Assembly (NCBI GenBank): GCA_030390025.1
Contig: JASTWF010000325.1
Span: 1 to 64,000 of the forward strand
From: Squalus acanthias
Lineage: Eukaryota
Length of the DNA: 64,000 nucleotides
Direction: 5' to 3'
The translations under genes were made by a program, and so were the position numbers. The notes under the pieces are model-generated. The model was not told the origin of the DNA, ran no database searches, and saw only the letters and a list, made by a program, of their open reading frames with translations. Of this stretch, positions 22,201 to 63,065 are shown one piece after another. How positions within the stretch are numbered: position 1 is the first letter of the stretch; each line of letters opens with the position of its first letter.

Positions 22201-22850
22201 TTCTTGTCAGGCTGCTTGATTGGATGAGCAGAAATGTTCTCCAATTAAAGCCGTTGTCTTCGGTTCCCACCACAAACTCTGTTCCCTAGCCACAGACTTC
22301 ATAAACTTGAGCTCATCCAAAGCTCGGCTGCCCGTGTCCTAACTCGCACCGAGTCCTGTTCACCCATCACCCCTGTGCTCGCTGAACTCCATTGGCTCTC
22401 GGTTAAACAGCTCTTCGATTTTAAAATTCTCATCCTTGTTTTCAAATCCCTCCATGGCCTCACTCCCCCCTATCTCTGTAACCTCCTTCAGCCCCACAAC
22501 CCCCCACCCCCCTGCCCCCCCCCCCCACCCCACCATGAGATATCTGCGCTCCTCTAATTCTGCCCTCTTGAGTATCCCTGATTATAATCACTCAACCATT
22601 GGTGGCCGTGCCTTCTGTTGCCTAGGCCCTAAACTCTGGAATTCCCTCCCTAAACCTCTCCGCCTCGCTACCTCTTTCCTCCTTTAAGACGCTCCTTAAA
22701 ACCTAACTCTTTGACCAAGCTTTTGATTATCTGCCCTAATTTCTCCTTATGTGGCTCGGTGTCAAATTTTTTCTCTTATAACATTCCTGTGAAGCGTTTT
22801 GGGACATTTTACTACGTTAAAAGCGCCATATAAATACAAGTTGTTGTTGT
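22200..22850 (+). mobile_element. L2-type LINE 3' fragment
   Basis: Near-copy of 8601-9073; (GTT)n tail. Confidence 0.8.
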
Positions 22851-23450
22851 CACTCATTCTGTCTCTCTGTCACACTCTCTCTTCCTGTCTCTCTCTTTCT
22901 CTCATCATTCTCTCTCTGTCACTCTCTCTTTCTCTCTCTCTCACTCTCCGTAATTCTTGCTCTCTCTATCACTCTCTCTCTCCCTGTCATTCTTTCTCAC
23001 TCTTTCTCTCTCCCTGTCATTGTTTGTCTCTCTCCATAACTCTCTCTGCTCTTGTCATTCTCTCTGTCTCTCGCTCTCTTCCCGTCTCTCTCTCTCTCTC
23101 TCTCTCTCCCCTATTACTTTCTCTCTGTCACTCTTCCTCTTCCTGTCTTTTTCTCTCTCTGTCTCTCTCATTCTCTCCCTATCTCTCTCTCATTGTCACT
23201 TTTTCTCTCACCTCTCGCTCTCTCTGTCTCCCTCTCTTTCTCTTCCTGTCTCTCTTTCTCTTCTTATCACTATTTCTCTCTCCCTCTCTCTCTCGGTCAG
23301 TCTTTCTCTCCCTGTCCCTCTCACTCTCCTCCTCTCTCCCTGGCTCTCTCTCTCTCTCTGCCTCTCTCGCTCTCCTCTGGCCTCTCTCTCTCACCCATGT
23401 CTCTGTCTCTCTCTCTCCCCATCTCTGGCTCTCTCTCACTCTCTTCCGTC
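22851..23450. repeat. Degenerate CT-rich low-complexity tract
   Basis: Polypyrimidine composition. Confidence 0.9.
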
Positions 23451-23453
23451 AGT

Positions 23454-26400
23454 CTGGAGACCCAGGCCCAATGTGTACTGGAGACCCAGGCCCAATGTGT
23501 ACTGGAGACCCAGGCCCGGTGTGTACTGGAGACTCAGGCCCAATGTCTACTGGAGACTCAGGCCCGGTGTGTACTGGAGACCCAGGCCCGGTGTGTACAA
23601 AAGGCCCAGGCCCGATGTGTACTGGAGACCCAGGCCCAATGTGTACTGGAGACCCAGGCCCGGTGTGTACTGGAGACCCAGGCTCGGTGTGTACTGGAGA
23701 CCCAGGCTCGGTGTGTACTGGAGACCCAGGCTCGGTGTGTACTGGAGACCCAGGCCCGGTGTGTACTGGAGACCCAGGCCCGGTGTGTACTGAAGGCCCA
23801 GGCCCGGTGTGTACCGAAGGCCCAGGCCCGGTGTGTACCGGAGACCCAGGCCCGGCGTGTACCGGAGACCCAGGCCCGGTGTGTACCGGAGACCCAGGCC
23901 CGGTGTGTACCGGAGACCCAGGCCCGATGTGTACCGGAGACCCAGGCCCGGTGTGTACCGGAGACCCAGGCCCGGTGTGTACCGGAGACCCAGGCCCGGT
24001 GTGTACCGCAGGCCCAGGCCCGGTGTGTACCGCAGGCCCAGGCCCGGTGTGTACTGGAGACCCAGGCCCGGTGTGTACTGGAGACCCAGGCCTGGTGTGT
24101 ACTGGAGACCCAGGCCTGGTGTGTACTGGAGACCCAGGCCCGGTGTGTACTGGAGACCCAGGCCCGGTGTGTACTGGAGACCCAGGCCCGGTGTGTATTG
24201 GAGACCCAGGCCCGGTGTGTACTGGAGACCCAGGCCCGGTGTGTACTGCTGGCCCAGGCCTGGTGTGTACTGGAGACCCAGGCCCGGTGTATACTGCTGG
24301 CCCAGGCCTGGTGTGTACTGGAGACTCAGGCCCAATGTCTACTGGAGACTCAGGCCCGGTGTGTACTGGAGACCCAGGCTCGGTGTGTACTGGAGACCCA
24401 GGCCCAATGTGTACTGGAGACCCAGGCCCAATGTGTACTGGAGACCCAGGCCCGGTGTGTACTGGAGACCCAGGCTCGGTGTGTACTGGAGACCCAGGCT
24501 CGGTGTGTACTGGAGACCCAGGCTCGGTGTGTACTGGAGACCCAGGCTCGGTGTGTACTGGAGACCCAGGCTCGGTGTGTACTGGAGACCCAGGCTCGGT
24601 GTGTACTGGAGACCCAGGCTCGGTGTGTACTGGAGACCCAGGCTCGGTGTGTACTGAAGACCCAGGCCCGGTGTGTACTGAAGGCCCAGGCCCGGTGTGT
24701 ACTGGAGACCCAGGCCCGGTGTGTACTGGAGACCTAGGCTCGGTGTGTACTGGAGACCCAGGCTCGGTGTGTACTGGAGACCCAGGCCCGGTGTGTACTG
24801 GAGACCCAGGCCCGGTGTGTACTGGAGACCCAGGCCCGGTGTGTACTGAAGGCCCAGGCCCGGTGTGTACCGGAGACCCAGGCCCGGTGTGTACCGGAGA
24901 CCCAGGCCCGGTGTGTACCGGAGACCCAGGCCCGGTGTGTACCGCAGGCCCAGGCCCGGTGTGTACCGCAGGCCCAGGCCCGGTGTGTACTGGAGACCCA
25001 GGCCCGGTGTGTACTGGAGACCCAGGCCTGGTGTGTACTGGAGACCCAGGCCCGGTGTGTACTGGAGACCCAGGCCCGGTGTGTATTGGAGACCCAGGCC
25101 CGGTGTGTACTGGAGACCCAGGCCCGGTGTGTACTGCTGGCCCAGGCCCGGTGTGTACTGGAGACCCAGGCCCGGTGTATACTGGAGACCCAGGCTCGGT
25201 GTGTACTGAAGGCCCAGGCCCGATGTGTACTGGAGACCCAGGCCCGGTGTGTACTGGAGACCCAGGCCCGGTGTGTACCGGAGACCCAGGCCCGGTGTGT
25301 ACCGGAGACCCAGGCCCGGTGTGTACTGGAGACCCAGGCCCGGTGTGTACAGAAGGCCCAGGCCCGGTGTGTACCGGAGACCCAGGCCCGGCGTGTACCG
25401 GAGACCCAGGCCCGGCGTGTACCGGAGACCCAGGCCCGGTGTGTACCGGAGACCCAGGCCCGGTGTGTACCGGAGACCCAGGCCCGGTGTGTACCGGAGA
25501 CCCAGGCCCGGTGTGTACCGGAGACCCAGGCCCGGTGTGTACCGGAGACCCAGGCCCGGTGTGTACCGCAGGCCCAGGCCCGGTGTGTACCGCAGGCCCA
25601 GGCCCGGTGTGTACCGGAGACCCAGGCCCGGTGTGTACTGGAGACCCAGGCCTGGTGTGTACTGGAGACCCAGGCCGGGTGTGTACTGGAGACCCAGGCC
25701 CGGTGTGTACTGGAGACCCAGGCCCGGTGTGTACTGGAGACCCAGGCCCGGTGTGTATTGGAGACCCAGGCCCGGTGTGTACTGGAGACCCAGGCCCGGT
25801 GTGTACTGCTGGCCCAGGCCTGGTGTGTACTGGAGACCCAGGCCCAGTGTATACTGCTGGCCCAGGCCTGGTGTGTACTGGAGACTCAGGCCCAATGTCT
25901 ACTGGAGACTCAGGCCCGGTGTGTACCGGAGACCCAGGCTCGGTGTGTACCGGAGACCCAGGCCCGGTGTGTACCGCAGGCCCAGGCCCGGTGTGTACCG
26001 CAGGCCCAGGCCCGGTGTGTACTGGAGACCCAGGCCCGGTGTGTACTGGAGACCCAGGCCTGGTGTGTACTGGAGACCCAGGCCTGGTGTGTACTGGAGA
26101 CCCAGGCCCGGTGTGTACTGGAGACCCAGGCCCGGTGTGTACTGGAGACCCAGGCCCGGTGTGTATTGGAGACCCAGGCCCGGTGTGTACTGGAGACCCA
26201 GGCCCGGTGTGTACTGCTGGCCCAGGCCTGGTGTGTACTGGAGACCCAGGCCCAGTGTATACTGCTGGCCCAGGCCTGGTGTGTACTGGAGACTCAGGCC
26301 CAATGTCTACTGGAGACTCAGGCCCGGTGTGTACTGGAGACCCAGGCTCGGTGTGTACTGGAGACCCAGGCCCAATGTGTACTGGAGACCCAGGCCCAAT

Positions 26401-27116
26401 GTGTACTGGAGACCCAGGCCCGGTGTGTACTGGAGACCCAGGCTCGGTGTGTACTGGAGACCCAGGCTCGGTGTGTACTGGAGACCCAGGCTCGGTGTGT
26501 ACTGGAGACCCAGGCTCGGTGTGTACTGGAGACCCAGGCTCGGTGTGTACTGGAGACCCAGGCTCGGTGTGTACTGGAGACCCAGGCTCGGTGTGTACTG
26601 GAGACCCAGGCTCGGTGTGTACTGGAGACCCAGGCTCGGTGTGTACTGGAGACCCAGGCTCGGTGTGTACTGGAGACCCAGGCTCGGTGTGTACTGAAGA
26701 CCCAGGCCCGGTGTGTACTGAAGGCCCAGGCCCGGTGTGTACTGGAGACCCAGGCCCGGTGTGTACTGGAGACCTAGGCTCGGTGTGTACTGGAGACCCA
26801 GGCTCGGTGTGTACTGGAGACCCAGGCCCGGTGTGTACTGGAGACCCAGGCCCGGTGTGTACTGGAGACCCAGGCCCGGTGTGTACTGAAGGCCCAGGCC
26901 CGGTGTGTACCGGAGACCCAGGCCCGGTGTGTACCGGAGACCCAGGCCCGGTGTGTACCGGAGACCCAGGCCCGGTGTGTACCGCAGGCCCAGGCCCGGT
27001 GTGTACCGCAGGCCCAGGCCCGGTGTGTACTGGAGACCCAGGCCCGGTGTGTACTGGAGACCCAGGCGTGGTGTGTACTGCAGGCCCAGGCCTGGTGTGT
27101 ACTGCAGGCCCAGGCA
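23454..27116. repeat. 24-bp minisatellite (CTGGAGACCCAGGCCCGGTGTGTA)n, ~150 units, with higher-order duplications
   Basis: 8-aa periodicity in the ORF track; diagnostic variants recur at fixed spacings. Confidence 0.97.
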
Positions 27117-27117
27117 C

Positions 27118-27695
27118 GGAGGTTTGGGGGGCTCTGTGGATCTCGGGGGTTTGGGGGGCTCTGTGGATCTCGGGGGTTTGGGGGGCTCTGTGGATCTCGG
27201 GGGTTTGGGGATACTGTGGATCTCGGGGGTTTGGGGGGCTCTGTGGATCTCGGGGGTTTGGGGGCTCTGTGGATCTCGGGCGTTTGGGGGGCTCTGTGGC
27301 TCTCGGGGGTTTGGGGGGCTCTGTGGATCTCGGGGGTTTGGGGGGCTCTGTGGATCTCGGGGGTTTGGGAGGCTCTGTGGATCTCGGGGGTTTGGGGGGC
27401 TCTGTGGATCTCGGGGGTTTGGGGGGCTCTGTGGATCTTGGGGGTTTGAGGGGCTTTGTGGATCTTGGGGGTTTGGGGGGCTCTGTGGATCTCGGGGGTT
27501 TGGGGGCTCTGTGGATCTCGGGGGTTTGGGGGCTCTGTGGATTTCGGGGGTTTGGGGGCTCTGTGGATCTCGGGGGTTTGGGGGCTCTGTGGATTTTGGG
27601 GGTTTGGGGCTCTGTGGATCTCAGGGGTTTGGGGGCTCTGTGGATTTCGGGGGTTTGGGGGGCTCTGTGGATCTCGGGGGTTTGGGGGCACTGTG
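27118..27695. repeat. 28-29-bp G-rich minisatellite (GGGGGTTTGGGGGGCTCTGTGGATCTC-like)
   Basis: Direct inspection. Confidence 0.93.
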
Positions 27696-28167
27696 GAAAC
27701 CCCACCCCTCAATGACGGGCAGGTCCCTGGGTGTCCAGCTCCATGGGGTATGTGGGCACCGGGGATGAGCCAATGGCTCCATGCAAATGAGGTGTCTGCC
27801 TTCAATCTCTGCAAACTCAGGCAGGGGTCGGGCTGTGGGTCATGAGCAGACCCAGCCCCCGTATAACCGGCAGGATTGCGGGCTGCTGATTCGTGGGGAC
27901 TCTGATATGGATCAGACCAAGCAGAGAGCTGTCAGTGAACATTGTAATCTGGACAGGGGAAGGGAGGAATATGGGGCCCAATCCCTTTCCACCCAGTTTC
28001 CGATCCTGCCTGGCCTCACTGAGCAATTCCCAAGGAGGACTGGTGGCATGCTGGGCTCCCCTGGGAATCCTGCCATTTCCACCCCGCGCATGTCCCGCTT
28101 TAAGTACACCTGCATGAAGCAGTTTAAAGTGGGCCCCACATGTTGTGTCTCAATGGTCATTACTGGT

Positions 28168-40003: not shown

Positions 40004-40575
40004 ACCTTATCAATCACACTTTGTACATTTACCCACATGCATTCCAAACCTAACTTAGACCTCTTTGTATTTTCTATGATCCCACCTAATTCTGTATTAT
40101 TTCTAACTCTAAGCAGGAAAAATTCGGTTGGGTAGTGCCTCTTGTTAGCGCCTCCGGGGGCGCTAACGGGACTCTAACGACTTACCGCCCGAGCGCGGCA
40201 ATTTTAGCGCCGCCCGCAAAATTGACCTGACGGTTTGCTGTGGCGCGAAACACTACCACCACGATCTCCTGCGCCCGGAGATCGTGACGTCATCGAAGCG
40301 TGCCCCAGACTGGAAATTGATTCTCGCCCCCTGCCGCTAGGAACGACAGGTAGAGGGGGAGGTTTTGCAGTCGACTGGGAGCTGGGGGTGCGCTATTTAA
40401 AGGCGGCGCTTCCTGCTTTTTCCAGTCGGCAAAATATTCTGCATACGCAGGTTGAGAGAGGGAGAGAGGCGTCTGGAGACACTTAACGCTGTCCTACAAG
40501 GAGTTTTGTTCCTCACCAACACTTTTCAGGTTCCCATTTCTGTCAGCTTTATCACTACCATATTTAGAAGATTAA

Positions 40576-41631
40576 ATGGGAGCTGTACTAGCACGGGGCC
40601 TTCGGAGGCAGCACAGGCGCAGAGAGAGAGTGGCAAATGTCAGAGGGCCAACTGGGCTCTGCACAGGAGACCTTACCCTCCCAGGGTATTCCGGGAGCAA
40701 TTCTCCCACATTCATCTGTCCGAGGAGCAGTGTTTTAGAAGGCTGCGCTTCAGCAAGGAGGGGGTCACTGAGCTTTGCCACCCCCTGCAGCCAGGGCTGC
40801 AGCCTCAGCTCAGGACCAGGATGTCTCTGTCGGTGGCAGTGAAGGTGACGGTGGCTCTCAATTTCTATGCCAGCGGCTCCTTCCAGGCTTCAACAGGGGA
40901 TATTGCGAACATCTCCCAATTCGCCATCCATCGTTACATCCGGGAGGTGACAAACGCTCTATACCAAAGGAGAAGGCAGTACATCTCTTTCCCCATGACC
41001 CGAGACAAACAGCGTGAACGCACATGTGGCTTTGCTAGGATAGCGGGCTTCCCCATGGTTCAGGGCGCCATTGACTGCACGCATGTGGCATTGCAAGCTC
41101 CTAATGAAAATGCAGAGGTTTTCCGCAACCGCAAAGGCTTCCACTCTCTGAACGTCCAGTTGGTTTGCAACCACAGACAGCGCATCCTCGCCTCAATGCC
41201 CGCTATCCTGGCAGCAGCCACAGTGCTTTCATCCTGTGCCAGACTGGTGTTCCAGACCTCTTCCAACCACTGCATCAACCTCGTGGCTGGCTCCTCGGGG
41301 ACAAGGGTTATCCACTCTTCACCTGGCTGATGACACCGCTCCGTAACCCCAACACTCCTGCTGAGCTCGCATACAATGAGAGCCATAGCGCCACTAGGAA
41401 CCTCACTGAACAGACGATCGGTGTGCTGAAGCAACGGTTCCGGTGTCTTGACCGCTCTGGAGGAGCCCTGCAGTACTCCCCCAATCGAGTCTCGGTTTTT
41501 ATTGTTGTGCGCTGCATGCTGCACAACTTCGTCATTCTGAGGACACAGCCATTGCCACCAGGGACTGGTGCACCACCTCAGGAGGAGGGAGAGGAGGGGG
41601 AGGAGGCGGAGGAGGAGGAGGATGAAGAGGA
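40576..41631 (+). pseudogene. Harbinger C transposase, frameshifted; C-terminus resumes at 51023-51112
   Basis: GAIDCTH, LLGDKGY; acidic tail split by the ERV insertion. Confidence 0.9.
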
Positions 41632-43253
41632 TGTAAGGGTTTGCGTGCGTGTCTCTCAGCCTGTGAGATTCACGCGGCTCTATGCAGCCTGTATGTCAGT
41701 GCGGGTTTAGGCCTTGTTGCCTGTTCTGGTCTCCAGCCAGTCTGGGAGCACTAGACACACCTGTGAGTGGTTCGAATCACTCGCCCTTACGGTTCTAGAC
41801 ACTGGACTTAGATGCGAGAGCAGTAATGGAGATGAAACTCATGTAGACTCGGTTGAATGGTACGAAATGGAAAAATCTTTATTGCATGATATTCAAGATT
41901 ACGAAATACATGTCATACAATCTTACACGCAGTTGTATAGCTAATTCTAGGGAAACGAGGAACGAACGACACACCGTAAATAGGGGCACACATTACAAGT
42001 ATCCTTAATACTTAAACCCTCCCCTATCAATATCTGTCCTAGCTAGATTCGTAGGATTCGAGACTCATGCTCACCACTCGTGATAACTCGGAGAAATTCC
42101 GAATAGCTGATCGGATGTTTTCACCACAGCACCCACGTGTCGATCAGGGGGTCTCCTGGTCCCACTTGTTTACTTGCTTCTGCTCCGGCTAGCAGGCTGG
42201 AACGTCTGCTGTGATGAAGATCTGTGTTGGTTGGTTTAACAGGCACTGTCCGGATGGGTTTCACAGACCAGTCAATATCATCTTGGAGGATCTTCCGAGG
42301 TCCGTTCTTGCAAGTTCAAAGAAGTCTCCCTGGCAAGGAAACTTGGCTATTCGACCTACAGGCGCGGTCGGGGCTTACTGACCATGGCGATGAGTATGGT
42401 CTTCCTCTCTTCTCATCTCATCTCATCTCATCTCATCTCATCTCGGGCCTTTGGTTCCGATGCCAGTTACCAACATAGGTCTTCGTTACGCGACACGAGG
42501 TAGATCCGAACGGATCATAAAGTTCAACAGTCTTTTTCAAAGAGGCACCAGGCAAGCAGGAACAAGACTACGAGTCAAAACACAGGAGCAGCCACGAGGA
42601 TACGAGTCGATCGGATAAGAGAAAGATGGACGGTTGGAGCTTGTAATTATAGTACAAAATCTTCCGTTTCCCGCCCAACCTTAATGCCCTTTCTTTTGTT
42701 TGGGTTTGGCGCTCAAATGTCTTGTATGGGTGATCTCCGTTCTTAATGGGTTTCGGGGCTACTCGTAAATGCCTGAGTACCTGTTAATATTTCTCCCATT
42801 GTTAAATCGGTCGGTGTTCTCCCTGGAGGGGTTTTGGGGCTTCCAAGTGTTTTGTATAACTACCCGCTAACGGCTCTCTCATCGTAGAGTCGTTGGGATT
42901 TTACATATTAATGTCTTTGGATGGGCCCTTGATTACTTGGTACAATAGCTTTCATTCGTACCTGGGAGACCGATTTCAGTATTTATGTGTATACTGCAAA
43001 CCCATAATGTCTCGTGTATTATCTTCAATGTGCTGAATCTTAATCGATCTTGCACAAATGTTTATTGGAACGCCATCTTGTCTGCCTGTCGAAGAGTCTA
43101 GAATGTTCTGTCACGAGGTGCGGCGGCCATTTTACAGGCTGCTTGTGTCCACTTTGAAAACCCTGACAGCATTCTGCTGAAATAAAAGCTGTTTGAACGA
43201 AACTCTGTGTTTTCTCCTTATTAATAAAATCGCGATATATTGCGAATTCTACA
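41632..43253 (-). repeat. 3' LTR
   Basis: Near-identical to 49376-51018; minus-strand AATAAA at 41878-83; TATA-like at ~42646; internal (CATCT)n. Confidence 0.97.
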
Positions 43254-43702: not shown

Positions 43703-46054
43703 TCACACGGTGCTTTCATCGTGCACGCGCACGTAACGTTCTCGCCACTCTCCCGTGTTTTCATGCTTAGTGAGGCGTTTGTCTCTTTTACAATGTACGA
43801 CCAATAGGTACACTACAATAAAAACTTGACATACGACTAAAATGTGGGAGGCTATTCTGATCCATGAAGGCACTTCAATATTGGTGAACAGATTCCACCA
43901 CGGTGGAACTACTATATCCAGAATGTCTGTCCCTATTTCGACAGTTTTCTGTTCTAATGTGTAAAAATGTTTCTGTGACACCGCGACGGCTTTTAAAAGC
44001 TTGGTGAGGTGTTCAGGGAGAGGGGGAATGAGGTATCCGAAATGCGCGACGAATCGCTGCAAGTCGGTGAAATTCTCTTTTACTGTGAGATGAACAGTGG
44101 ATGGTTCAGGGATTGGGATAATTCGCTGTTGTGCTACTTGAACTTCCGCCCTGGGTTTGAAACAGAAACTGCTGTCACTCACCGGACACCGGCTACGGTT
44201 TCCATGCTGGTAGTGTTGCGCTGCAGTGGTAACACAATATGTTCCACCCCCGATGTATGCTACCTGCGGAGGCACATGATCTTGTGCCATTGCCTCCATG
44301 GTGCAATTCATGGACTTGGCGCCAGCCGTTCTGAACCCGCACTGTGGTGTTAAAAAGGCATTCAAGTGCTGGGGACACAGTATTATGTGTGCTCCCCTGC
44401 CACGAAAACCAGCGAGATCTGTACCTGTCATCGTTTGCTCCCAGCGGATGACGTAGGGTGGAACCGCTGCATAGCGAATGTGGGCTCCCCCCTGAATGAC
44501 ACCAATGTTCTCTACCCGATACACCGGGGCGGGCTTTGCTGTGTCGCCCAGAACCGGCATACGTAGTACTATACCCATAATGGTATGGTTTGATCGTCCG
44601 CAGTCCACGGGGACTGGGTAAGCTTCTGAAGCTAGCCTGAGCTGGCACGGGCTTAATGCGTTCTGAAAAGGGTGGAGCGCCCGCAGGTGTTTGTTACTTA
44701 TCCAGGACGGGACCAAACCTTGTTTTAAATCCTCCAAATTACTGCGGCCCTCGCCCAGTAACCACGCCCCGTAAAGCACGCACACCTCGTTCTGTGCAGC
44801 TTGATCGGATGCATTCCGATCTTCCCTAATCAGGGCATTTACCGTCTTTGCATGTTTCTCCAGCTCTGCTATAATTTCCTTTAAATGGAGAGTCATGGCT
44901 TGGTCCTCGTGTAGACCCGACCCTACCACTTTATTCTCATCTGTTAGAATGTCTTTTAATTGTGTCTTTAAACCATTAATCTGGGTCTGCAGCTCCACAC
45001 TGTCTAGAGCGTTGACCACAGATGTACCCGTGTTAAAAGCAGTGAACGCATCGTTCACTAAACCCCTTCTTTGCCTTCCTACTTGATCCAAAACTTCATG
45101 TGGTGCGGTGTACAAACTTGTTTTATCAATTTCCGCGAAATCGAATTCGTAAAATTGTCTGAACATCTTGGTCAACAGGACCTGATACAACTGTTCCGTC
45201 TTTTTGGGGCACCACTCTGGTAACCGCACCTCGGTGAGATTTAAAATCACCGAGGCCACCGCGTAATGTACCCCCTGAAATAGTATCTGGTCTGTGGGGA
45301 CCAGTACCAAACCATTCCCGGGTCCTTTACTAGTTTTAGGGCACCCTTCCTCTTCAGCTAGAACCACCGGAATCGTGGGCGGGGCTTTGCGTGGGCGCGT
45401 AATGAGCTCAGTGGCATTTACCGGGATCGAAGAGTATGGGGCTCCGCACCCCCTGGTGCTCGCATCCCACCTCATCCCCTGTCCGTTATCCTGCCACTGA
45501 TTAATGAAAAATATGGATATGCCTTTGGGGCAAGGGTATTTTGACCCCCACATGCATACATAAATTCCCTCGTCCGGTTCCCACCATTTGTCCCAACAGA
45601 CTCTCACTTGTCCGTTTGTCCCCGTAATTGTCCGATGGGTATTATTACCCAGTCGTTCCCACTCGACCGAAGAGTTCCTCATGTTTTTGCTCAGCTTTCG
45701 CAGCCACCACCATCGGCTCAATGGGACATTCCCACTACAAGTCAAACAAATCCGTTTGCCGACGGTGACGCTGATCCTGGGTGCGATGATCCTTACTTTG
45801 GGGCACATTAAAGAAGTCTCTTGGTAGGCAAACCCCGATGTGCTAGAATACTCCGTTGAGTTCGTTCCCAGCCATCCTGGCCACCTTCCCTTGTGGAAAT
45901 AGGTGGTGGTCTCCTCAGCCTCCCGTCTTCCGGTCCCATCCACCGCGATGGGGGCCGTGTCCCCGGAGCATCCGAACACCACGACATCCTTGGTGCGGCC
46001 TCGATAGGCCAATCCACATCCGATTGCCGCGAGCAATACTAGAATTCGTTCCAT
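43703..46054 (-). CDS. env: Envelope glycoprotein: signal peptide, Ig-like domain, class I F-like fusogen, TM segment, short tail (783 aa from Met54 of the ORF)
   Basis: MERILVLLAAIGCGLA signal; splice acceptor TCTATCTGATCACAG 13 nt upstream; RQRR|GLVNDAFTAF furin site and fusion peptide; heptad repeat; Cys-rich region; TM ILVVCQVFIVVYLLVV; multiple NxS/T sites. Confidence 0.88.
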   Translation of the reverse strand: MERILVLLAAIGCGLAYRGRTKDVVVFGCSGDTAPIAVDGTGRREAEETTTYFHKGRWPGWLGTNSTEYSSTSGFAYQETSLMCPKVRIIAPRISVTVGKRICLTCSGNVPLSRWWWLRKLSKNMRNSSVEWERLGNNTHRTITGTNGQVRVCWDKWWEPDEGIYVCMWGSKYPCPKGISIFFINQWQDNGQGMRWDASTRGCGAPYSSIPVNATELITRPRKAPPTIPVVLAEEEGCPKTSKGPGNGLVLVPTDQILFQGVHYAVASVILNLTEVRLPEWCPKKTEQLYQVLLTKMFRQFYEFDFAEIDKTSLYTAPHEVLDQVGRQRRGLVNDAFTAFNTGTSVVNALDSVELQTQINGLKTQLKDILTDENKVVGSGLHEDQAMTLHLKEIIAELEKHAKTVNALIREDRNASDQAAQNEVCVLYGAWLLGEGRSNLEDLKQGLVPSWISNKHLRALHPFQNALSPCQLRLASEAYPVPVDCGRSNHTIMGIVLRMPVLGDTAKPAPVYRVENIGVIQGGAHIRYAAVPPYVIRWEQTMTGTDLAGFRGRGAHIILCPQHLNAFLTPQCGFRTAGAKSMNCTMEAMAQDHVPPQVAYIGGGTYCVTTAAQHYQHGNRSRCPVSDSSFCFKPRAEVQVAQQRIIPIPEPSTVHLTVKENFTDLQRFVAHFGYLIPPLPEHLTKLLKAVAVSQKHFYTLEQKTVEIGTDILDIVVPPWWNLFTNIEVPSWIRIASHILVVCQVFIVVYLLVVHCKRDKRLTKHENTGEWRERYVRVHDESTV

Positions 46055-46365
46055 CCTTCCTTGGTTCCTGTGATCAGATAGAATGAGGTAGCCAGCCTCG
46101 CAAGAGTCTCTGGCTTTTGTGAAGGGTGAGCGGGTCCCCTGACCTCGCCTCACGTAAACTTCAACGTTCGCTGAATAAACTTTAACTAAACCTATCTCTA
46201 AAGCTCCCATCATTTTATCATTTTCTGTTAAAATTAAAACTACAAACTTAACCTGATTAAAACTATAAACTTATAACCTTAAACTATAAACTTAAACTTA
46301 AACTATGAACTTAAAACTTAAAACTTATTACTGTACAGCGCCGCCCGTTCTCAGGGCGGCCCCCT

Positions 46366-47562
46366 TTAAATTCTGAGAAGGCTGCTGCGAGCTCTTACCG
46401 ACTTTGGGAGGGCTCTGACCTTTTCCTCTGATCTGCCGCAGCCTGTTTCTGTACTGACCCCTCCCTCTGATCTGCCGCAGCCTGTTTCTGCACTGACCCC
46501 TTCCTCTGATCTGCCGCAGCCTGTTGCTGCTGCGATGGGGCCGGGCTGTATCTGGGCTGCCTTAACCTTGAGTCTGCGCCTTGGGACAGACTGGGGCCAT
46601 ACCCATATCTTCTTGGGCTGGGGTTCTCTACTTGACCTACGGGGAGTTGTCAGGGGCGGGGATCCCATGACCGACGGACCGGGTTCCGAGACTTCCATCG
46701 GGACGACCTGTGGTTCCACCACAGTCGCTGGCTCCGCCTCCGCTGACTCCGCCTCCCTAACCTCGGGGCTCGCAGTTTGTGGCTCCGCCCTGCTCGGCCC
46801 AGCAGGCGGCCCTTCACTCGCGATCTCTGCCTCCCCCGAGGGCGGGACGTTCAAAGCGGGCGGCTCGGGCTCGGAGGTTCTCACCGTCACTCCCTGTGGT
46901 CCCACAGCGGCTGGCTCCGCCTCCCCTAGCTCCTCCCTCCTGTGTTCGGGACCTGCAGCTTGTGGCTCCGCCCTGTGCGGATCTCCATCTGCAGTCCGTG
47001 TCCTCCCTATACCTAAAATGGGAACGCTCCTTACGTTCCCCAAAACCCACTCGTCTTCATCACTATCCTCATCTGACTCCCAACCCCACAAAAATGCTTC
47101 ATGATCTTCCAGGATGTCCCCTCCCCTGATGCAAGCTGCTTTGCCTGCCTGTGTGCCCTGTGGTCCTACCTGGGGCTGCGAGTCCCCACTCGCAGGTCTG
47201 GCCCCTCCCCTAAGACAGGCCACCGCCCCTGCTTGTTTCTGTGAAATCTCACCTGCTGGAGGCTGCAGATTTCTATCCTGTTTTAAATCCTCATACTCCC
47301 TGCTCCTGGCTACCCTGTAGGCTGCTTTTATCTCTCTAAGCTGCGCTTCTAGCCTGAGCACGTCTAACTTTCCCATTGAGCAGGCGTTCTCCTCCCGCAG
47401 GGCCTGCTCTCTAAGCTGCCCTTCCAGCCCATCTATTTTCCCTATTAAGCGGGCGTTCTCCTCCCGCAAGGCCTGCTCTTTTAACCTGGCCTCCTCACCG
47501 CAGACCCCCTCCTGTGCGTGTCTTTTAAAAGGACACAGGTAGGCAGGCTGCGTGGGCTCTAG
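46366..47562 (-). CDS. ORF X: 398 codons open in frame after the gag UGA; coiled-coil plus acidic/Pro-rich repeats, no enzyme motifs
   Basis: Frame continues CAA TGA CTA GAG CCC ACG.. without a stop to TAA at 46368-66; no early ATG. Confidence 0.7.
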   Translation of the reverse strand, partial: LEPTQPAYLCPFKRHAQEGVCGEEARLKEQALREENARLIGKIDGLEGQLREQALREENACSMGKLDVLRLEAQLREIKAAYRVARSREYEDLKQDRNLQPPAGEISQKQAGAVACLRGGARPASGDSQPQVGPQGTQAGKAACIRGGDILEDHEAFLWGWESDEDSDEDEWVLGNVRSVPILGIGRTRTADGDPHRAEPQAAGPEHRREELGEAEPAAVGPQGVTVRTSEPEPPALNVPPSGEAEIASEGPPAGPSRAEPQTASPEVREAESAEAEPATVVEPQVVPMEVSEPGPSVMGSPPLTTPRRSSREPQPKKIWVWPQSVPRRRLKVKAAQIQPGPIAAATGCGRSEEGVSAETGCGRSEGGVSTETGCGRSEEKVRALPKSVRARSSLLRI

Positions 47563-49371
47563 TCATTGGGGACTATTAGACGGTCCTGCGGCACCTACGG
47601 GGCCGGTAGCAACCGCCACCTTTCCATGTGCACTCAATAAACTGCGCATGGCTCCTAACACTACTTCGAGGTCGTCGGGAGGGGTGGGTGCACCAGCTTC
47701 CCTAGCCGGGACAGGCGCCTGGGCTCGGGCTGCGGGATTTTTATCCTTGGAATCCTTCCAAGGGTTCCTGCAATGCTTGCGCCAGTGCCCTGTCTTCCCA
47801 CACCCGTAACAAGCATTACTTGCCTGTGGGGCGCGATTACCCTCCTGATGCCACTCTCTTTGATACGGGGCTGCGGGTCGTACCTCATGTACTTTTCCCT
47901 TAAGGGGACGTGTTGCCATACCCCTTATATTGCGATATCCTAACGTGAGTCGATTCAAGACCGACTCTTCCGTAATGTTGGGGTCATTGGGATCAAACCA
48001 TGCTTTTGCCTGCTCTCTGACGGCTGGTAAACTGTTGGCTATTATGCACCTAAGCCAATGAGCTAAACCGGCGCCTTCCACATCTTCGCGCTCTGGCGCA
48101 CCTAGACAGCTGCGCTGATATACTGGCCACAGCCTGTCGGCAAAAACCTTCGGGGGTTCTCCCTCCATCTGCACTGTCTGTCCCACTCTAGCAAACGGAC
48201 CTTCATCGTCCGCCCCCAACACTTCCAGGACCTCATTCTTTAATGCCTCATAAGTCTTGGTTCCCCTCTTGCTCTCGCCCGAGAGACACTGAAGGATTGT
48301 ACTGCCTAACGAAAACAACAGCATTTTTGCTGTTTCCCCATCATCGCAGCCGTTAATGGCTGCGGTTTGCTCAACTTCCCTGAAATGTACGGAAGGGTCG
48401 TCTGACTCGGTCAGCTTCCGTACGTGATTTATCATAACTCTCAGCTGGTGTGAGCTGTGAGGCAACACAAGCTGGCCGAGGAGATCCCCTGGTTCCTCCC
48501 CACCGTTTCTGTTTGGGCCCCTTTTTATACCCGTTACTGGATACAACGGTCCCTTTTCCATTTCTTTCTCCATGGGCTCTTTCGTTTCTTCCATTGCTTC
48601 CTCCCTTACCCAGGTTTCCGAATAGCTGGGTGGCGCGGAGGGCGCAGTGGCTAATACTTCCTCTGCTTTACTTGGTGGGGATTTCTCAAACTCCTCACTT
48701 ACTAGCGGCTGGTGTGCTGACGGACTGATAAGGCACACCATGCCGTGCGCTTTGTTCACGGCCCTTTTGAGGTGCTCTATCTCCCTTTTGCAGGCGCTAT
48801 GATCGGCTCCCTGAAACTTATCCTCAAGGGCCAACTTATATGCCGCCCTAACCCCCGTTAAGCTCTCTTCCTGAGTTCTTATCTGGGCAGCTTGGCGGGC
48901 ACATCGTTCCTTTAACCTGCTCTCATTTAACTTTGCCTCAGTGACCTGGCACTCGAGGTAATCTATCCTTGTTTTATGGTGACTGGAGATTTCCTGGCGT
49001 TCTTGGTGCAGCGCACTTAAATTCCTAATGAGCAATTCCCCTCCAGAAACCTTCTCATCCATTTCTCCCTCTAAATGACTGATTCGAGCTGTTAGTGCTG
49101 TAATGGTCTGGTTTGAAATCTGGACCTGCCTTTTGTAACACATTAGCCAGACTGCTTTCTCGAGTGTCTTTTTATGTTCTTTACTATCTGTCCACCTTTC
49201 GGCTGCCTCTAGTGGGCTTTTATCCGCTAACAATTCACTTATCCATTTCTTAGTTAGATTAACCTTTCCGAACACATAATCTGCTATCTTTTCCTGCATA
49301 ACATTTCGTACAGTCATTCCAAAGTCTAACACACTACCCTCTCGCTGCCAGTGTCCTGCCGCGGTCGCCAT
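47563..49371 (-). CDS. gag: Gag (602 aa): coiled-coil N-terminus, PSAP/PPSY late motifs, capsid-like region, CCHC zinc knuckle
   Basis: CYGCGKTGHWRKHC; TAPSAPPSY; directly follows the 5' LTR. Confidence 0.9.
   Translation of the reverse strand: MATAAGHWQREGSVLDFGMTVRNVMQEKIADYVFGKVNLTKKWISELLADKSPLEAAERWTDSKEHKKTLEKAVWLMCYKRQVQISNQTITALTARISHLEGEMDEKVSGGELLIRNLSALHQERQEISSHHKTRIDYLECQVTEAKLNESRLKERCARQAAQIRTQEESLTGVRAAYKLALEDKFQGADHSACKREIEHLKRAVNKAHGMVCLISPSAHQPLVSEEFEKSPPSKAEEVLATAPSAPPSYSETWVREEAMEETKEPMEKEMEKGPLYPVTGIKRGPNRNGGEEPGDLLGQLVLPHSSHQLRVMINHVRKLTESDDPSVHFREVEQTAAINGCDDGETAKMLLFSLGSTILQCLSGESKRGTKTYEALKNEVLEVLGADDEGPFARVGQTVQMEGEPPKVFADRLWPVYQRSCLGAPEREDVEGAGLAHWLRCIIANSLPAVREQAKAWFDPNDPNITEESVLNRLTLGYRNIRGMATRPLKGKVHEVRPAAPYQREWHQEGNRAPQASNACYGCGKTGHWRKHCRNPWKDSKDKNPAARAQAPVPAREAGAPTPPDDLEVVLGAMRSLLSAHGKVAVATGPVGAAGPSNSPQ
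49353..49370 (-). promoter_or_regulatory. Primer-binding site, tRNA-Arg (TCG-type)
   Basis: TGGCGACCGCGGCAGGAC is complementary to the 3' end ..GTCCTGCCGCGGTCG-CCA of vertebrate tRNA-Arg (tRNA sequence from memory). Confidence 0.8.
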
Positions 49372-49375
49372 TTTC

Positions 49376-51018
49376 TGTAAGGGATTTGACGTGCGTGTCT
49401 CTCAGCCTGTGAGATTCACGCGGCTCTGTGCAGCCTGTATGTCAGTGCGGGTTTAGGCCTTGTTGCCTGTTCTGGTCTCCAGCCAGTCTGGGAGCACTAG
49501 ACACACCTGTGAGTGGTTCGAATCACTCGCCCTTACGGTTCTAGACACTGGACTTAGATGCGAGAGCAGTAATGGAGATGAAACTCATGTAGACTCGGTT
49601 GAATGGTACGAAATGGAAAAATCTTTATTGCATGATATTCAAGATTACGAATACATGTCATAAGCACAGATTAATGACAGTACAATCTTACACGCAGTTG
49701 TATAGCTAATTCTAGGGAAACGAGGAACGAACGACACACCGTAAATAGGGGCACACATTACAAGTATCCTTAATACTTAAACCCTCCCCTATCAATATCT
49801 GTCCTAGCTAGATTCGTAGGATTCGAGACTCATGCTCACCACTCGTGATAACTCGGAGAAATTCCGAATAGCTGATCGGATGTTTTCACCACAGCACCCA
49901 CGTGTCGATCAGGGGGTCTCCTGGTCCCACTTGTTTACTTGCTTCTGCTCCGGCTAGCAGGCTGGAACGTCTGCTGTGATGAAGATCTGTGTTGGTTGGT
50001 TTAACAGGCACTGTCCGGATGGGTTTCACAGACCAGTCAATATCATCTTGGAGGATCTTCCGAGGTCCGTTCTTGCAAGTTCAAAGAAGTCTCCCTGGCA
50101 AGGAAACTTGGCTATTCGACCTACAGGCGCGGTCGGGGCTTACTGACCGTGGCGATGAGTATGGTCTTCCTCTCTTCTCATCTCATCTCATCTCATCTCA
50201 TCTCATCTCGGGCCTTTGGTTCCGATGCCAGTTACCAACATAGGTCTTCGTTACGCGACACGAGGTAGATCCGAACGGATCATAAAGTTCAACAGTCTTT
50301 TTCAAAGAGGCACCAGGCAAGCAGGAACAAGACTACGAGTCAAAACACAGGAGCAGCCACGAGGATACGAGTCGATCGGATAAGAGAAAGATGGACGGTT
50401 GGAGCTTGTAATTATAGTACAAAATCTTCCGTTTCCCGCCCAACCTTAATGCCCTTTCTTTTGTTTGGGTTTGGCGCTCAAATGTCTTGTATGGGTGATC
50501 TCCGTTCTTAATGGGTTTCGGGGCTACTCGTAAATGCCTGAGTACCTGTTAATATTTCTCCCATTGTTAAATCGGTCGGTGTTCTCCCTGGAGGGGTTTT
50601 GGGGCTTCCAAGTGTTTTGTATAACTACCCGCTAACGGCTCTCTCATCGTAGAGTCGTTGGGATTTTACATATTAATGTCTTTGGATGGGCCCTTGATTA
50701 CTTGGTACAATAGCTTTCATTCGTACCTGGGAGACCGATTTCAGTATTTATGTGTATACTGCAAACCCATAATGTCTCGTGTATTATCTTCAATGTGCTG
50801 AATCTTAATCGATCTTGCACAAATGTTTATTGGAACGCCATCTTGTCTGCCTGTCGAAGAGTCTAGAATGTTCTGTCACGAGGTGCGGCGGCCATTTTAC
50901 AGGCTGCTTGTGTCCACTTTGAAAACCCTGACAGCATTCTGCTGAAATAAAAGCTGTTTGAACGAAACTCTGTGTTTTCTCCTTATTAATAAAATCGCGA
51001 TATATTGCGAATTCTACA
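49376..51018 (-). repeat. 5' LTR
   Basis: Differs from the 3' LTR by ~2 substitutions, three 1-bp indels and one 20-bp indel (by eye). Confidence 0.97.
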
Positions 51019-51415
51019 AGGAGAATCAGCAGCAGCAACGTGGGAGGGAGGCGCTCAATGTTGCCTCTTCAAGGGCCGTCTGGGAACGCCTGATAAGACA
51101 CCGCTTCAGATGAATGACAGAGAAGATGGCTTTTGGGATGAAGAAGCACATCATCGCAACCATCCCGTAGCCCCTATTACCAAGCAAAGCTCCAATGAGT
51201 AAAATGAGCAAAGTTGTCAATTTTCAATTAAAAAAATTATTTTTCTGACAAACTGTGTCTTATTAAGCACAACCAATACCAAACAAACACAGTTCATTAA
51301 CAAACACAACTGGTTCTTACCACATCGAGATAAGCGTTAACAGAGTGAACAAGATATTAACATAAACATCCAACTTTGGGACAAACATTCCCCCCATTTG
51401 TTTGAGAATTTTTAG

Positions 51416-59540: not shown

Positions 59541-60697
59541 CTAGAAGCGGCTTGCTATTAGTCGTTGACGGACGGCCCTTGCAGTTTGACCATTGTGGGC
59601 CGCCCTCCTGCCTTGGTGCTGCTGCTGATCATCGTCCTCGGCCTGTTCCTCCTCTTCCTCCTCCTCCTCTTGTGGTGCTGCAAGGCCTGGTGGCATTGGC
59701 TGCGTCCTGAGGATTGCCATGTTGTGCAACATGCAGCACACCACTACGAATTTGGAAACTTGCTCAGGCGAGTACTGCAGGGCTCCTCCGGAATGGTCCA
59801 GACAGCGGAATCGTTGTTTGAGCACGCCGATTGTGCGCTCAATAATGTTCCTCGTTGCTTGTTGGCTTTCCTGGTACTGCAGCTCAGCAGGGGTGTTTGG
59901 CGCACGGAGCGGTGTCATCAGCCAGGTGCTCAATGCGTACCCCTTGTCCCCCAGAAGCCAACCAACTGGCTGATGCGGTGCCTCGAAAATTTCTGCCACA
60001 GTACTCTGGCGCAGGATGAAAGCATCGTGGCAGCTGCCCGGATAGTGGGCATTGACAGCGAGAATCACCTGTCTGTGGTCACAGACCAACTGCACATTCA
60101 AGGAATGGAACCCCTTTCTGTTCCGGAACTCCTCTGCATTCTCTCGCGGAGCACGCAAAGCCACATGCGTGCAGTCAATGGCGCCCTGCACCATGGGGAA
60201 GCCCGCTACCCTCGCAAAGCCCATAGCACGGTCATGCTGCTTGTCTGGGGTCATAGGGAAGGAGATGAAGTCTCGTCTCCTTGTGAAGAGGGCATTGGTA
60301 ACCTGCCGGATGCAGCGATGCACCGCAAACTGGGAGATATTGGCGAGGTCCCCAACAGCAGCTTGGAATGAGCCAGTGGCGTAGAAGTTCAAAGCCACTG
60401 TGACCTTCACTGCCACCGACAGAGACGTCCTGGACCTCAGCTGAGGCTGCAGATCTGGCTGCAGCAGGTGGCAGAGCTCAGTGACCACCTCCTTGCTGAA
60501 TCGCAGCCTTCGCAAACACAGCTCCTCGGACATGTGGATGTAGGAGAGCTGTTCACGATATACCCTGGGAGGGTAAGCTCTCCTGTACATGCGCCTGATG
60601 GCCCTCCTCCGTCTGGCCATCATTGCCACTCTCTGTCTGCGTCTCTCCTCCGATTGAGCTGGAGCAGGACGACGCCCCCAATCATTGCAGCCCCCAT
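59541..60697 (-). pseudogene. Harbinger B transposase; 4-bp deletion near 60645 frameshifts the N-terminus, catalytic core still open (362 aa)
   Basis: Copy A GTCTCTGTATCCTCCG versus copy B GTCTCTCCTCCG. Confidence 0.85.
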
Positions 60698-63065
60698 ATT
60701 CTCTTTGGCAGAAAAGTAATGAGGTACAGCAACGAAAGTAGCAGCAAAGTTAGGATGAACTAGGCCAAACTACCTCACAAAGCGTTGAGTCAATGTAGAA
60801 GTCTCTCTCTCTCTCTCTCCGAATCTCTCTCTCTCTCTCAGAACGAGCGGTGCATAAATGTCGACCACAGAAAAAGACAGGAAGAGGCCCCCTTTAAATA
60901 GCGCCCCCCCCAGCCCCACACCGATTGATAACGTTCCAGTCTTCCGGTCGTTGGAAGCGCCAGGCTGTAAGGCAGGGGGCGCCACTCAATTTCCGCTCCG
61001 GGGCGCCCCAAGGGCATTGCACCACGGAATGACGTCACAATCTGCGCGCGCAGGTGGTCGCAGCGGTAAGTTTTAGCGCCGCCGCACAATCTCAAGTTAA
61101 GTTCTCGAGCGGCGCAAACAGCGCTGCGCCCGGGCGTTAGCGCCTTAACGCCCCATTAGCGCCCATTTAAGGCGCTAACGGGAGGCGCAACCAACTGAAT
61201 TTTTACCCCTAAGTTCCAGGAGGCAGTCACACCCACTAGAGTAATTACTTCCAATTTGGCCCATGGTCAGGGACAGGAGGGTGTGACTACAAGTGAGGCA
61301 GGTATTGGGATCCAGGAGGTAGTGATGGAGGAGCCTCAGCCCTTGGCCTTCTCTAACAGGTACGAGATTCTTGCTCCCTGTGTGGACGAGAGCAGGGACT
61401 GCAGGGAGGATGAGCAATCTGACCACAGCACCATGGTACAGGGAGCCATTCAAGTGGGGGGAGTAAAAAGAAATGTTGTAGTGATAGGGGATAGTATAGT
61501 TAGGGGGATAGACACTGTTCTCTGCAGCCGAGAACGTGAGTCCCGAAGGCTGTGTTGCCTGCCCGGTGCCAGGGTTAAGGACATCTCCTCTGGGCTGGAG
61601 AGAAACTTGGAGTGGGAGGGGGAAGATCCAGTTGTCATGGTCCACGTAGGTACCAATGACATAGGTAGGACAAAGAAAGAGGTTCTGCTGAGAGAGTATG
61701 AGCAGCTAGGGGCTAAATTAAAAAGCAGAACCACAAAGGTAATAATCTCTGGATTACTACCTGAGCCACGAGCGAATTTGCATAGGGTAAATAAGATCAC
61801 AGAAATGAACGAGTGGCTCAAAGACTGGTGTGGGAGAAATGGGTTTTGATTTGTGGGGCACTGGCACCAGTACTGGGATAAGAGGGGAGCTGTTCCATTT
61901 GGACAGGCTTCACTTGAACCATGCTGGAGCTAGAGTCCTGGCGAATCGAATAACTAGGGCTGTAGAGAGGGCTTTAACTGAAGTAGTGAGGGGGAGGATC
62001 CAGGTGAGCGGGAATTTAAAATGTCAATGAGAAATGAGAAAACAATAGAGCAGGATAGAGATGGGGGAAATAATAACCAGAGTGTGACAGGAAGGGACAG
62101 AATGTTTAAAAATAAGAGTGCAACAGAAAATGGGGCCAAAACAAGGAGAAATGGTAAAAAGACAAAGTTAAAAGCTCTATATCTGAATGCACGCAGCATT
62201 CGTAACAAGATAGATGAGTTGATGGCACAAATAGATACAAATGGGTATGATCTGATCGCCATTACAGAGACGTGGTTGCAAGGTGACCAGGCTGGGAACT
62301 GAATATTCCAGGGTTTTTGACAATTCGGAATGATAGACAGAAAGGAAAGGGAGGTGGGGTGGCTTTGTTGGTAAAGGATGGGATTAGTGCAGTGGTAAGA
62401 AGTGATATTGGCTCAGAAGATCAAGATGTAGAATCAATTTGGGTGGAGATAAAAAATAATAAGGGGAAAAAGTCTCTGGTGGGTATAGTCTACAGGCCCC
62501 CGAACAGTAGCAATACTGTTGGACAGAGTATAAATCAACAAATAATGGAGGCCTGTAAAAAAGGTACGGTAATACTCATGGGTGATTTTAATCTCCATAT
62601 TGATTGGACAAATCAAATTGGCCATGGTAGCCTTGAGGAGGAGTTCATAGAGTGCATCCGGGATGGTTTCCTAGAACAGTATGTAATGGAACCAACCAGG
62701 GAGCAGGCTATCTTGGATCTGGTACTGTGTAATGAGACAGAATTAATAAATGATATCATAGTAAAGGATCCTCTAGGTAAGAGTGATCATAACAAGGTTG
62801 AATTTCAAATTCAGTTGGAGGGTGAGAAAGTTGTATCTCAAACCAGTGTCCTGTTCTTAAACAAAGTCAATTACAATGGCATGAGGCAAGAACTGGCTAA
62901 AGTAGACTGGAAAAATAAATTAAAAGGTAAGACAGTTGAAATGCAGTGGCGGACATTTAAGGAGATATTTCATAACTCTCAACAGAAATATATACCAGTG
63001 AGAAAGAAAGATTTTAAGAGAAGGGAACACCATCCGTGGCTAACTAAGGAAGTAAAGGATGGTAT

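Follow-up and report, generated by a model that had tools for sequence, protein, structure and literature searches.

An in-frame pol remnant behind the UGA-CUAG gag stop codon of a non-autonomous endogenous retrovirus in Squalus acanthias

The provirus and the open frame behind gag

The DNA analyzed here is a 64,000-nucleotide stretch of the shark Squalus acanthias (contig JASTWF010000325.1, positions 1 to 64,000; hereafter the window), and its minus strand carries a complete long terminal repeat (LTR) provirus in the order gag, X and env. X denotes the open frame that continues directly behind the gag stop codon, a UGA in the context UGA-CUAG. Comparison with autonomous relatives in the same genome identifies X as a remnant of pol, in which 111 inserted codons join the two ends left after loss of the protease, reverse transcriptase (RT), RNase H and integrase regions. 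All features of the provirus given below lie on the minus strand.

The junction between gag and X reads CCC CAA TGA CTA GAG CCC, with the TGA at 47565-47563 and the CTAG at 47562-47559, so that the putative leaky-stop context occupies 47559..47565. Two stop-to-stop open reading frames (ORFs) abut here in one frame, 47563-49401 containing gag and 46366-47562 containing X. From its first ATG (49371), gag has 602 codons (47566..49371), and readthrough of the UGA would add one residue and the 398 codons of X to give a protein of 1001 amino acids. The X coding span (46369-47562, 1194 nt, 60% GC) has its first methionine at codon 63. An earlier sequence-only reading of this DNA had described a gag ending in CAA-TGA-CTAG, a frame open for a further 398 codons, a fusion of 1001 residues and an X that lacks an early ATG, and the sequence and ORF coordinates bear out each of these points. 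The other five frames of the same 1194 nt contain 3–20 stops apiece; at that density 398 open codons have a probability of about 5e-7, and none of 20000 mononucleotide shuffles of X was free of stops. Thus, the openness of X exceeds what chance or base composition would produce.

The remaining parts of the provirus are those of an endogenous retrovirus (ERV). The 5’ LTR (49376..51018; 1643 bp, TG...CA) matches the 3’ LTR (41632..43253) at 98.5% identity over 1643 columns of a self-BLAST alignment, a purine-rich tract lies just before the 3’ LTR, and a TCCT target-site duplication flanks the pair (51019-51022 and 41628-41631). A candidate primer-binding site, an 18-mer beginning TGG (49353..49370), lies 5 nt after the LTR and overlaps the gag ATG. 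This 18-mer begins within the ATG itself (49353-49371), so the element lacks a leader between LTR and gag, and any packaging signal would be within gag or elsewhere. The parts that a deleted ERV needs in cis (two LTRs, a primer-binding-site-like sequence, a purine tract and a target duplication) are all present.

Gag is rich in coiled coil in its N-terminal half and has one CCHC zinc knuckle near the C-terminus, about 70 codons ahead of the stop; its matches to nucleocapsid proteins are weak (E about 0.1), and a Pfam scan of Gag returned no match. Behind X, an AT-rich non-coding spacer (46214..46365) ends in a splice-acceptor-like T-rich tract and a CAG immediately before the ATG of an env-like ORF (43703..46213, 855 codons). 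The product has a signal-peptide-like start, an RQRR cleavage motif with a fusion-peptide-like stretch behind it, and a C-terminal membrane anchor. A Pfam scan of Env to E 0.1 gave only DUF6360, at E = 0.035 and under its cut-off, and no paramyxovirus/pneumovirus fusion glycoprotein (PF00523); a sequence search of the PDB gave no match. Protease, RT, RNase H and integrase domains were not found in Gag, X or Env by Pfam scan. CpG is depleted in the window, with an observed/expected ratio of 0.51.

X compared with the autonomous pol

A search of the 3.7-Gb host assembly with the junction region returned matches of the full-length kind together with many that cover only the last 830 nt. At two of the latter loci (L019 and L020), this stretch is the C-terminal continuation of a long ORF that ends in integrase. 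Larger pieces of four autonomous-type copies were then compared, three of which (L021, L023 and L024) hold the junction. Each of the three contains a gag ORF, a single TGA-CTAG and, in the same frame, a short peptide followed by protease (DTGA), RT, RNase H, integrase and a C-terminal tail, with Pfam matches to RVP (pol residues 17-112), RVT_1, RNase_H and rve; the intact pol frame is 1500 codons long. The layout is that of a readthrough gag-pol, with both genes in one frame and a single stop placed after the zinc knuckle and before DTGA, which lies about 35 codons downstream. The proposal that the signal in the window element is an ancestral gag-pol recoding site is therefore supported, and the suggested check of autonomous relatives for TGACTAG followed by protease has a positive outcome. 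The fourth piece (L022, G000:C3630:831100-841050) is a different deletion derivative of the family, with gag fused straight to mid-RT and no gag-pol junction.

Alignment of the window element to the autonomous copies resolves X into three parts, all in frame. The two forms are 98–99% identical between the beginning of the 5’ LTR and position 47531, which lies 32 nt past the stop, the next 334 nt of the window element have no counterpart in the autonomous copies, and from 47196 to the pol stop DNA identity is 96–97%. A contig loose end at 47531 that carries autonomous protease sequence marks the same breakpoint. X codons 1-11 (47530..47562) are thus the first codons of pol, upstream of protease, codons 12-122 (47197..47529) are an insert confined to the non-autonomous family, and codons 123-398 (46369..47196, stop at 46366-46368) are the last 276 codons of pol, downstream of integrase. 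About 1213 pol codons, encoding protease, RT, RNase H and integrase, are gone. X had been described as a non-enzymatic protein standing in place of Pol, a different cargo loaded by the old signal. The first part stands, as neither the Pfam scan nor structure prediction finds an enzymatic domain in X. The second is too strong, because about 72% of X is pol and only the 111 codons are foreign. For annotation, ORF callers will separate gag from X and overlook the pol origin of X.

The tail appears to be an old part of pol. A phmmer search of X against 1.84 billion representative proteins gave a single match, P0001, which lies in the tail (41% identity) and consists of an integrase C-terminus plus a tail of similar build; retention of such a tail behind integrase in this distant relative supports its age. 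In an AlphaFold2 prediction based on aligned natural copies of X, the protein is disordered past residue 99, with predicted local distance difference test (pLDDT) scores of 30–45 in the tail. A 39-nt (13-codon) tandem repeat lies at 46415..46530 (Tandem Repeats Finder: 3.0 copies, 92% matches), and the number of units, three in the window copy, differs among copies by whole units only, as 39-nt indels. The tail also contains an acidic stretch between tryptophans at X codons about 158-173 (about 47040-47090), which is longer and duplicated in other subtypes; it may resemble acidic-tryptophan short linear motifs.

The insert itself is simple in predicted structure. A second subtype of X, found in 8 of 35 compared copies, has insert codons about 98-122 swapped for the last integrase residues (a net difference of 33 nt), so the core insert common to all copies is codons 12-97. 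Within it, codons 20-97 are predicted to form one long helix (pLDDT 78–90). Searches for relatives of the insert in the rest of the element, in the four autonomous loci and in the whole window (BLASTN and TBLASTX) gave chance-level matches only. The phmmer search found no homolog of the insert, a word-indexed protein search with X found no match among proteins of 218-697 amino acids, and a protein atlas queried with X residues 1-125 gave best scores of 0.87, to unnamed clusters that provide no lead. A Pfam match of X to Rab11-FIP3 (E = 0.0083) was rejected as coiled-coil noise, at 16.9 bits against a cut-off of 31.9.

The nearest likeness to the insert lies in the element’s own gag. BLASTP between the two gives only E = 0.43; the insert nevertheless aligns collinearly with the gag coiled coil (gag residues 105-187; hhalign E = 0.075), with a Smith-Waterman score of 61 against a shuffle mean of 36.1 (standard deviation 5.9), reached by 5 of 2000 shuffles. 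This shuffle test is liberal for coiled coils, for which reversed gag and env, at 43 and 48, provide a comparison. These values are suggestive of an insert derived from, or related to, the coiled coil of gag, but do not establish it. The 333-nt insert could otherwise be a captured piece of host mRNA, which would make X a Gag-host fusion. Replication-defective transducing retroviruses, such as acutely transforming ones with host genes fused to Gag, carry a foreign insert fused to Gag in place of pol and need a helper, and a foreign block in frame at the former site of pol reproduces that architecture. However, neither the phmmer nor the word-indexed search recovered a homolog of the insert, the atlas scores do not exceed 0.87, and the best likeness, weak as it is, is to the element’s own gag. 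In the host-genome search with the insert all 150 scored matches are copies of the family, a saturation that would mask a single-copy host source. Capture from the host is accordingly regarded as the least probable of the origins and functions considered for X.

The new junction also created a predicted stem-loop. It lies at 47493..47557, starting 9 nt after the UGA and spanning the 5’ junction of the insert, and has a folding energy of -28 kcal/mol (z = -2.57), equaled by 2 of 200 shuffles. The same stretch of the autonomous copy folds at -15.3 kcal/mol (z = +0.32), and no strong downstream fold was found in autonomous copies by a prediction that excludes pseudoknots. The 5’ arm of the stem consists of retained pol bases and the 3’ arm of the first bases of the insert, which look like an imperfect inverted copy of the 5’ arm. 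This inverted arm could be left over from the formation of the junction, or could have been selected; no covariation is seen among the copies that would favor one or the other.

Copies of the family and selection on X

Both forms of the element recur throughout the genome. The insert protein as query gave 2428 first-look candidates, with 150 of 150 scored places at 95–100% identity, and the autonomous gag-protease junction gave 1890, with 40 of 40 scored at 98–100%; these first-look counts are not copy numbers. A tail of another subtype gave 6493 candidates, of which 145 were scored: 62 lie in a 386-residue frame (X-type), 53 in a 1500-residue frame (pol) and 30 in other frames. A 375-residue frame around the tail recurs at four places (e.g. 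G000:C4:13667792), which suggests another X subtype or a deletion form. Autonomous and non-autonomous forms are clearly both abundant and young, the age resting on one LTR pair, that of the window element (98.5% alike).

The stop codon and the frame behind it are kept across copies. TGA-CTAG is present in 18 of 18 copies first read, in 41 of 41 aligned non-autonomous copies (the window copy, 17 of the first 18 and 23 others) and in 7 of 7 more that were chosen for a short X frame, for a total of 48 of 48 non-autonomous copies; the three autonomous copies that span the junction have it as well. A sense codon in place of the stop, or an X broken throughout, would have spoken against a recoding signal; the former occurs in 0 of 48 copies and the frame is largely intact. 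X is open for 372-406 codons in 35 of the 41 aligned copies, and for at least 373 residues in 136 of the 150 scored places. Since X has about 0.27 variants per site, invariance of the seven bases at the stop carries no significance on its own. Of four sequencing runs, from four studies and with four different organism labels, three (X1 record 7, X9 record 29 and X10 record 14) have contigs that bridge gag, TGA and insert with TGA-CTAG unaltered; the RNA status of these runs is only guessed, so the contigs show presence of the junction, not expression.

Selection was assessed in the window copy and 35 others, with the ratio of nonsynonymous to synonymous changes (N/S) and the number of new stops counted per codon and compared with the two shifted frames. 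Left out were L002-L004 (near-identical array or duplicate copies of the window element), L017 and L018 (non-homologous 3’ parts) and seven duplicate loci. In the last 545 codons of gag, N/S is 1.20 against 4.22 and 3.90 in the shifted frames, with 0 new stops, and in the first 190 codons of env, using shared variants, it is 1.43 against 3.27 and 3.00; gag and env are under purifying selection. X differs in residues but not in frame. Over all 398 codons, N/S is 3.22 against 3.15 and 3.52, with 1 new stop (private to L015) against 13 and 9. The tail (codons 123-398) gives 3.38 against 2.95 and 3.13, with 0 new stops against 10 and 7. For codons 1-122, N/S is 2.71 against 4.00 and 6.43, with 1 new stop against 3 and 2; the numbers here are small, and random placement predicts neutrality. 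When the observed base changes are placed at random, 10.6 new stops are expected in X and 1 is seen.

Insertions and deletions follow the same pattern. Those in X that are common to at least two copies are all net multiples of three (eight in-frame events and a 3+8+22 composite in eight copies), and three private frameshifts occur. In 95 nt of the adjoining spacer, by comparison, 27 of 36 indel events depart from multiples of three, and 12 of these 27 occur in more than one copy. Purifying selection thus does not act on the residues of X, while its frame is kept open. Residues that evolve as in a non-coding frame speak against a finely adapted cargo, and the shortage of stops and frameshifts argues that translation matters somewhere in the family.

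A selected Gag-X product could account for the kept frame. In such a case the helix would act as a linker or multimerisation piece that brings the pol tail, but not the enzymes, into particles, or the product would act in cis on its own RNA, as reported for the fusion protein of the mouse intracisternal A-particle (IAP) 1-delta-1 element (PMC6466679), an action from which the derivative would draw its advantage. Every observed subtype retains the complete tail in frame, 136 of 150 scored copies have an open frame, stops and frameshifts are depleted, and groups with a broken X are small. P0001 keeps a similar tail behind integrase, the insert is collinear with the gag coiled coil (score 61, 5 of 2000 shuffles; hhalign E = 0.075), and an N/S near 1 may average constraint with an arms race. 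However, the X frame does not differ from the shifted frames in N/S, whether over its full length or in the tail alone, the insert has no excess of synonymous change, about 300 of 398 residues are predicted to be disordered, and the profile, word-indexed, atlas and phmmer searches yielded no domain matches. An adapted product is a possible explanation, but a rather unlikely one.

It is also conceivable that the UGA terminates efficiently and X is never made, its openness reflecting recent inheritance and tails refreshed from helpers. Several observations fit such a silent relic: the copies are very alike, their tails match helper tails, the residues of X are unconstrained and groups with a frameshifted X exist. 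Yet these seven bases also precede pol in the autonomous siblings, whose replication would depend on their being read through, and this context is unchanged in 48 of 48 non-autonomous copies. Moreover, the downstream stem-loop is stronger than that of the helper, and one new stop is seen where about 10 are expected. We consider a silent relic improbable.

The exchange of tails between forms is most readily attributed to recombination. An identical insert precedes at least three tail types, each of which is 96–100% like the tails of contemporary autonomous copies. Since the same insert stands before different helper-like tails, recombination with helpers is indicated, presumably between co-packaged RNAs of helper and derivative.

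Several copies occur in head-to-tail arrays with a spacing of 7,760-7,784 bp (G000:C11:61698193, 61705977 and 61713737), and further arrays are present on C430 (3267, 11051 and 18835) and C3671. The spacing is about the length of the element minus one LTR, so neighboring copies appear to share LTRs. One of the C11 copies matches the window element without any difference over the 1335-nt junction stretch (100% identity). The nearest named relatives of the autonomous pol are frog and coelacanth ERV pols (42–44% identity), and relatives of env are found in skate (75%) and sawshark (52–58%). Two of the sawshark env relatives, P0123 and P0124, are annotated within host proteins (‘Niban 1-like’ and ‘ZFP2-like’) and are probably gene-model fusions with ERV env fragments.

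Other repeats lie elsewhere in the window. A retroelement at 10019-12970 (+) has a DUF7041 gag-like ORF of 413 residues, separated by one in-frame TAA (11258-11260) from an RT-RNaseH-integrase ORF of 570 residues; the TAA may be either another arrangement of the readthrough type or a nonsense mutation of recent date. The window also contains three transposase ORFs of the DDE_Tnp_4 (PIF/Harbinger) type, at 20164-21507 (-), 59544-60749 (-) and 40401-41330 (+), which are related to one another (79–94% alike). In a repeat of about 5 kb at 22793-27715, several frames of both strands are open, with ORFs of up to 1640 residues; this repeat looks like low-complexity tandem-repeat DNA rather than a gene.

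Readthrough, helper dependence and related systems

UGA-CUAG directs efficient readthrough in four mammalian genes, OPRL1, OPRK1, AQP4 and MAPK10, as described in PMC4132726; UGA-CUA alone is reported there to give 1.5%, the lowest CUAG case about 3.5% and the best about 31%. The shark element and the alphaviruses carry the identical UGA and CUAG, but the extensions described for these genes and viruses are short or a viral polymerase (PMC4132726), whereas that of the shark element, known from sequence, is 398 codons of degraded pol. In gamma- and epsilon-type retroviral readthrough, gag and pro-pol are likewise in one frame with a single stop between zinc knuckle and protease DTGA (PMC13517186). 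However, the retroviral contexts given in this animal-virus review are UAGGGA, UAGGGC, UGAAGA, UGACGA and UGAAGU, and UGACUA appears there only for alphaviruses and a triatovirus. The shark family differs in its UGACUA, and no strong downstream fold was found in its autonomous copies among structures other than pseudoknots. Literature searches, covering main texts, found no report of UGA-CUAG in retroviruses or shark ERVs. The family adds UGA-CUAG to the contexts seen at retroviral gag-pro junctions. Because the autonomous siblings depend on the site for pol, UGA-CUAG must presumably be read through in the host.

The closest analogue of the derivative is the mouse IAP 1-delta-1 element. This non-autonomous form arose by deletion, encodes a gag-pol fusion in frame that is reported to act in cis, and outcompetes full-length elements (PMC6466679). 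In both cases an internal deletion leaves an in-frame gag-pol ORF, the element relies on full-length relatives and it has been very successful; in the shark element the enzyme domains are missing, and an autonomous relative 98–99% identical in LTR and gag is present in the same genome. Unlike IAP 1-delta-1, the shark element has a whole gag, and its fusion would need readthrough of a stop codon. It further differs in its foreign helix of 111 codons, in retaining only the post-integrase tail of pol, in an env that is kept under purifying selection, and in its non-mammalian host. Transducing retroviruses, such as the helper-dependent MoMSV (PMC13517186, table), share with the shark element a foreign sequence in frame with gag and the need for a helper; in contrast to theirs, the shark insert is a bare helix for which no host homolog was found, in a germline repeat of apparently very high copy number. 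Lokiretroviruses are ERVs of fish and amphibians whose Env has a furin-type site, fusion peptide and coiled coil and of which some have an extra coiled-coil ‘smc’ gene (PMC7947760). The nearest named pol relatives of the shark element, from frog and coelacanth, recall this group; unlike it, the shark Env has no match to PF00523, and the family is not placed there for that reason.

Taken together, the explanation we favor, with moderate confidence, is that X is the pol remnant of a helper-dependent ERV, from which the leaky UGA-CUAG is predicted to give a Gag-deltaPol protein, with the frame kept open and the residues free. The parent family would make pol by in-frame readthrough of gag-UGA-CUAG. 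In the derivative the break lies 32 nt past the stop, and the 333-nt insert bridges in frame to the last 276 codons of pol; the context was inherited unchanged along with the first 32 downstream bases, and the new stem-loop follows. A few percent of ribosomes would read on to make the 1001-residue Gag-deltaPol, which may join particles through its Gag part, beside the Gag and Gag-Pol of autonomous siblings that would supply the enzymes. It is plausible that Gag-X is made and loaded into particles in this way. The predicted product is a long helix with a disordered tail, rather than a finely adapted cargo. The frame may stay open because tails are repeatedly re-imported from helper pol by recombination, and also because translation to the native pol stop is favored. 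These two reasons together are ranked above a selected role of the protein, and that in turn above mere youth.

Several observations weigh against this explanation. First, the avoidance of stops and frameshifts is significant only for the whole of X and for the tail. Variation in the tail is common to helper pol, so it may be in helper pol, rather than in the derivative, that openness is selected; codons 1-122 alone, where 1 stop compares with 3 and 2 out of frame, have no power. Second, the copies are young (LTRs 98.5%, many copies 95–100% alike), so much of the openness may be simple inheritance. Third, frameshifts in X are common to the members of small groups of copies (L056/L057, L058/L059 and L060/L061), with 1-nt indels mostly in homopolymer runs, and a broken X may therefore not block spread; these groups may be propagating lineages, duplications, haplotigs or assembly errors. 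Finally, a full tail in frame in maybe thousands of copies is poorly explained as a pure passenger.

A more speculative proposal, which we hold only tentatively and regard as doubtful, is that the pol tail is a separate, fast-evolving and disordered virion accessory module with acidic-tryptophan and repeat motifs, which must be translated and is otherwise free to change, as in a host arms race. The derivative would have kept just this module and hung it on Gag by a gag-like helix, its dose raised by the junction-born stem-loop. If so, an element that parasitizes the helper would bring along an accessory protein of its own, delivered by readthrough, and no earlier retroviral lineage would have been shown to express gag-pol through the alphavirus-type UGA-CUAG.

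Under the favored explanation, in which X is a pol remnant behind a leaky stop, the recoding signal has outlived the gene that it served, as the same seven bases would now send ribosomes into the remains of pol, in a derivative whose copy number appears to be very high. In PMC7566565, readthrough elements are reported to shield viral RNAs against nonsense-mediated decay, even where readthrough is inefficient. With its strict frame and drifting residues, this shark family may offer a natural test of whether readthrough serves protection of the RNA or delivery of a disordered tail, as against delivery of an enzyme.

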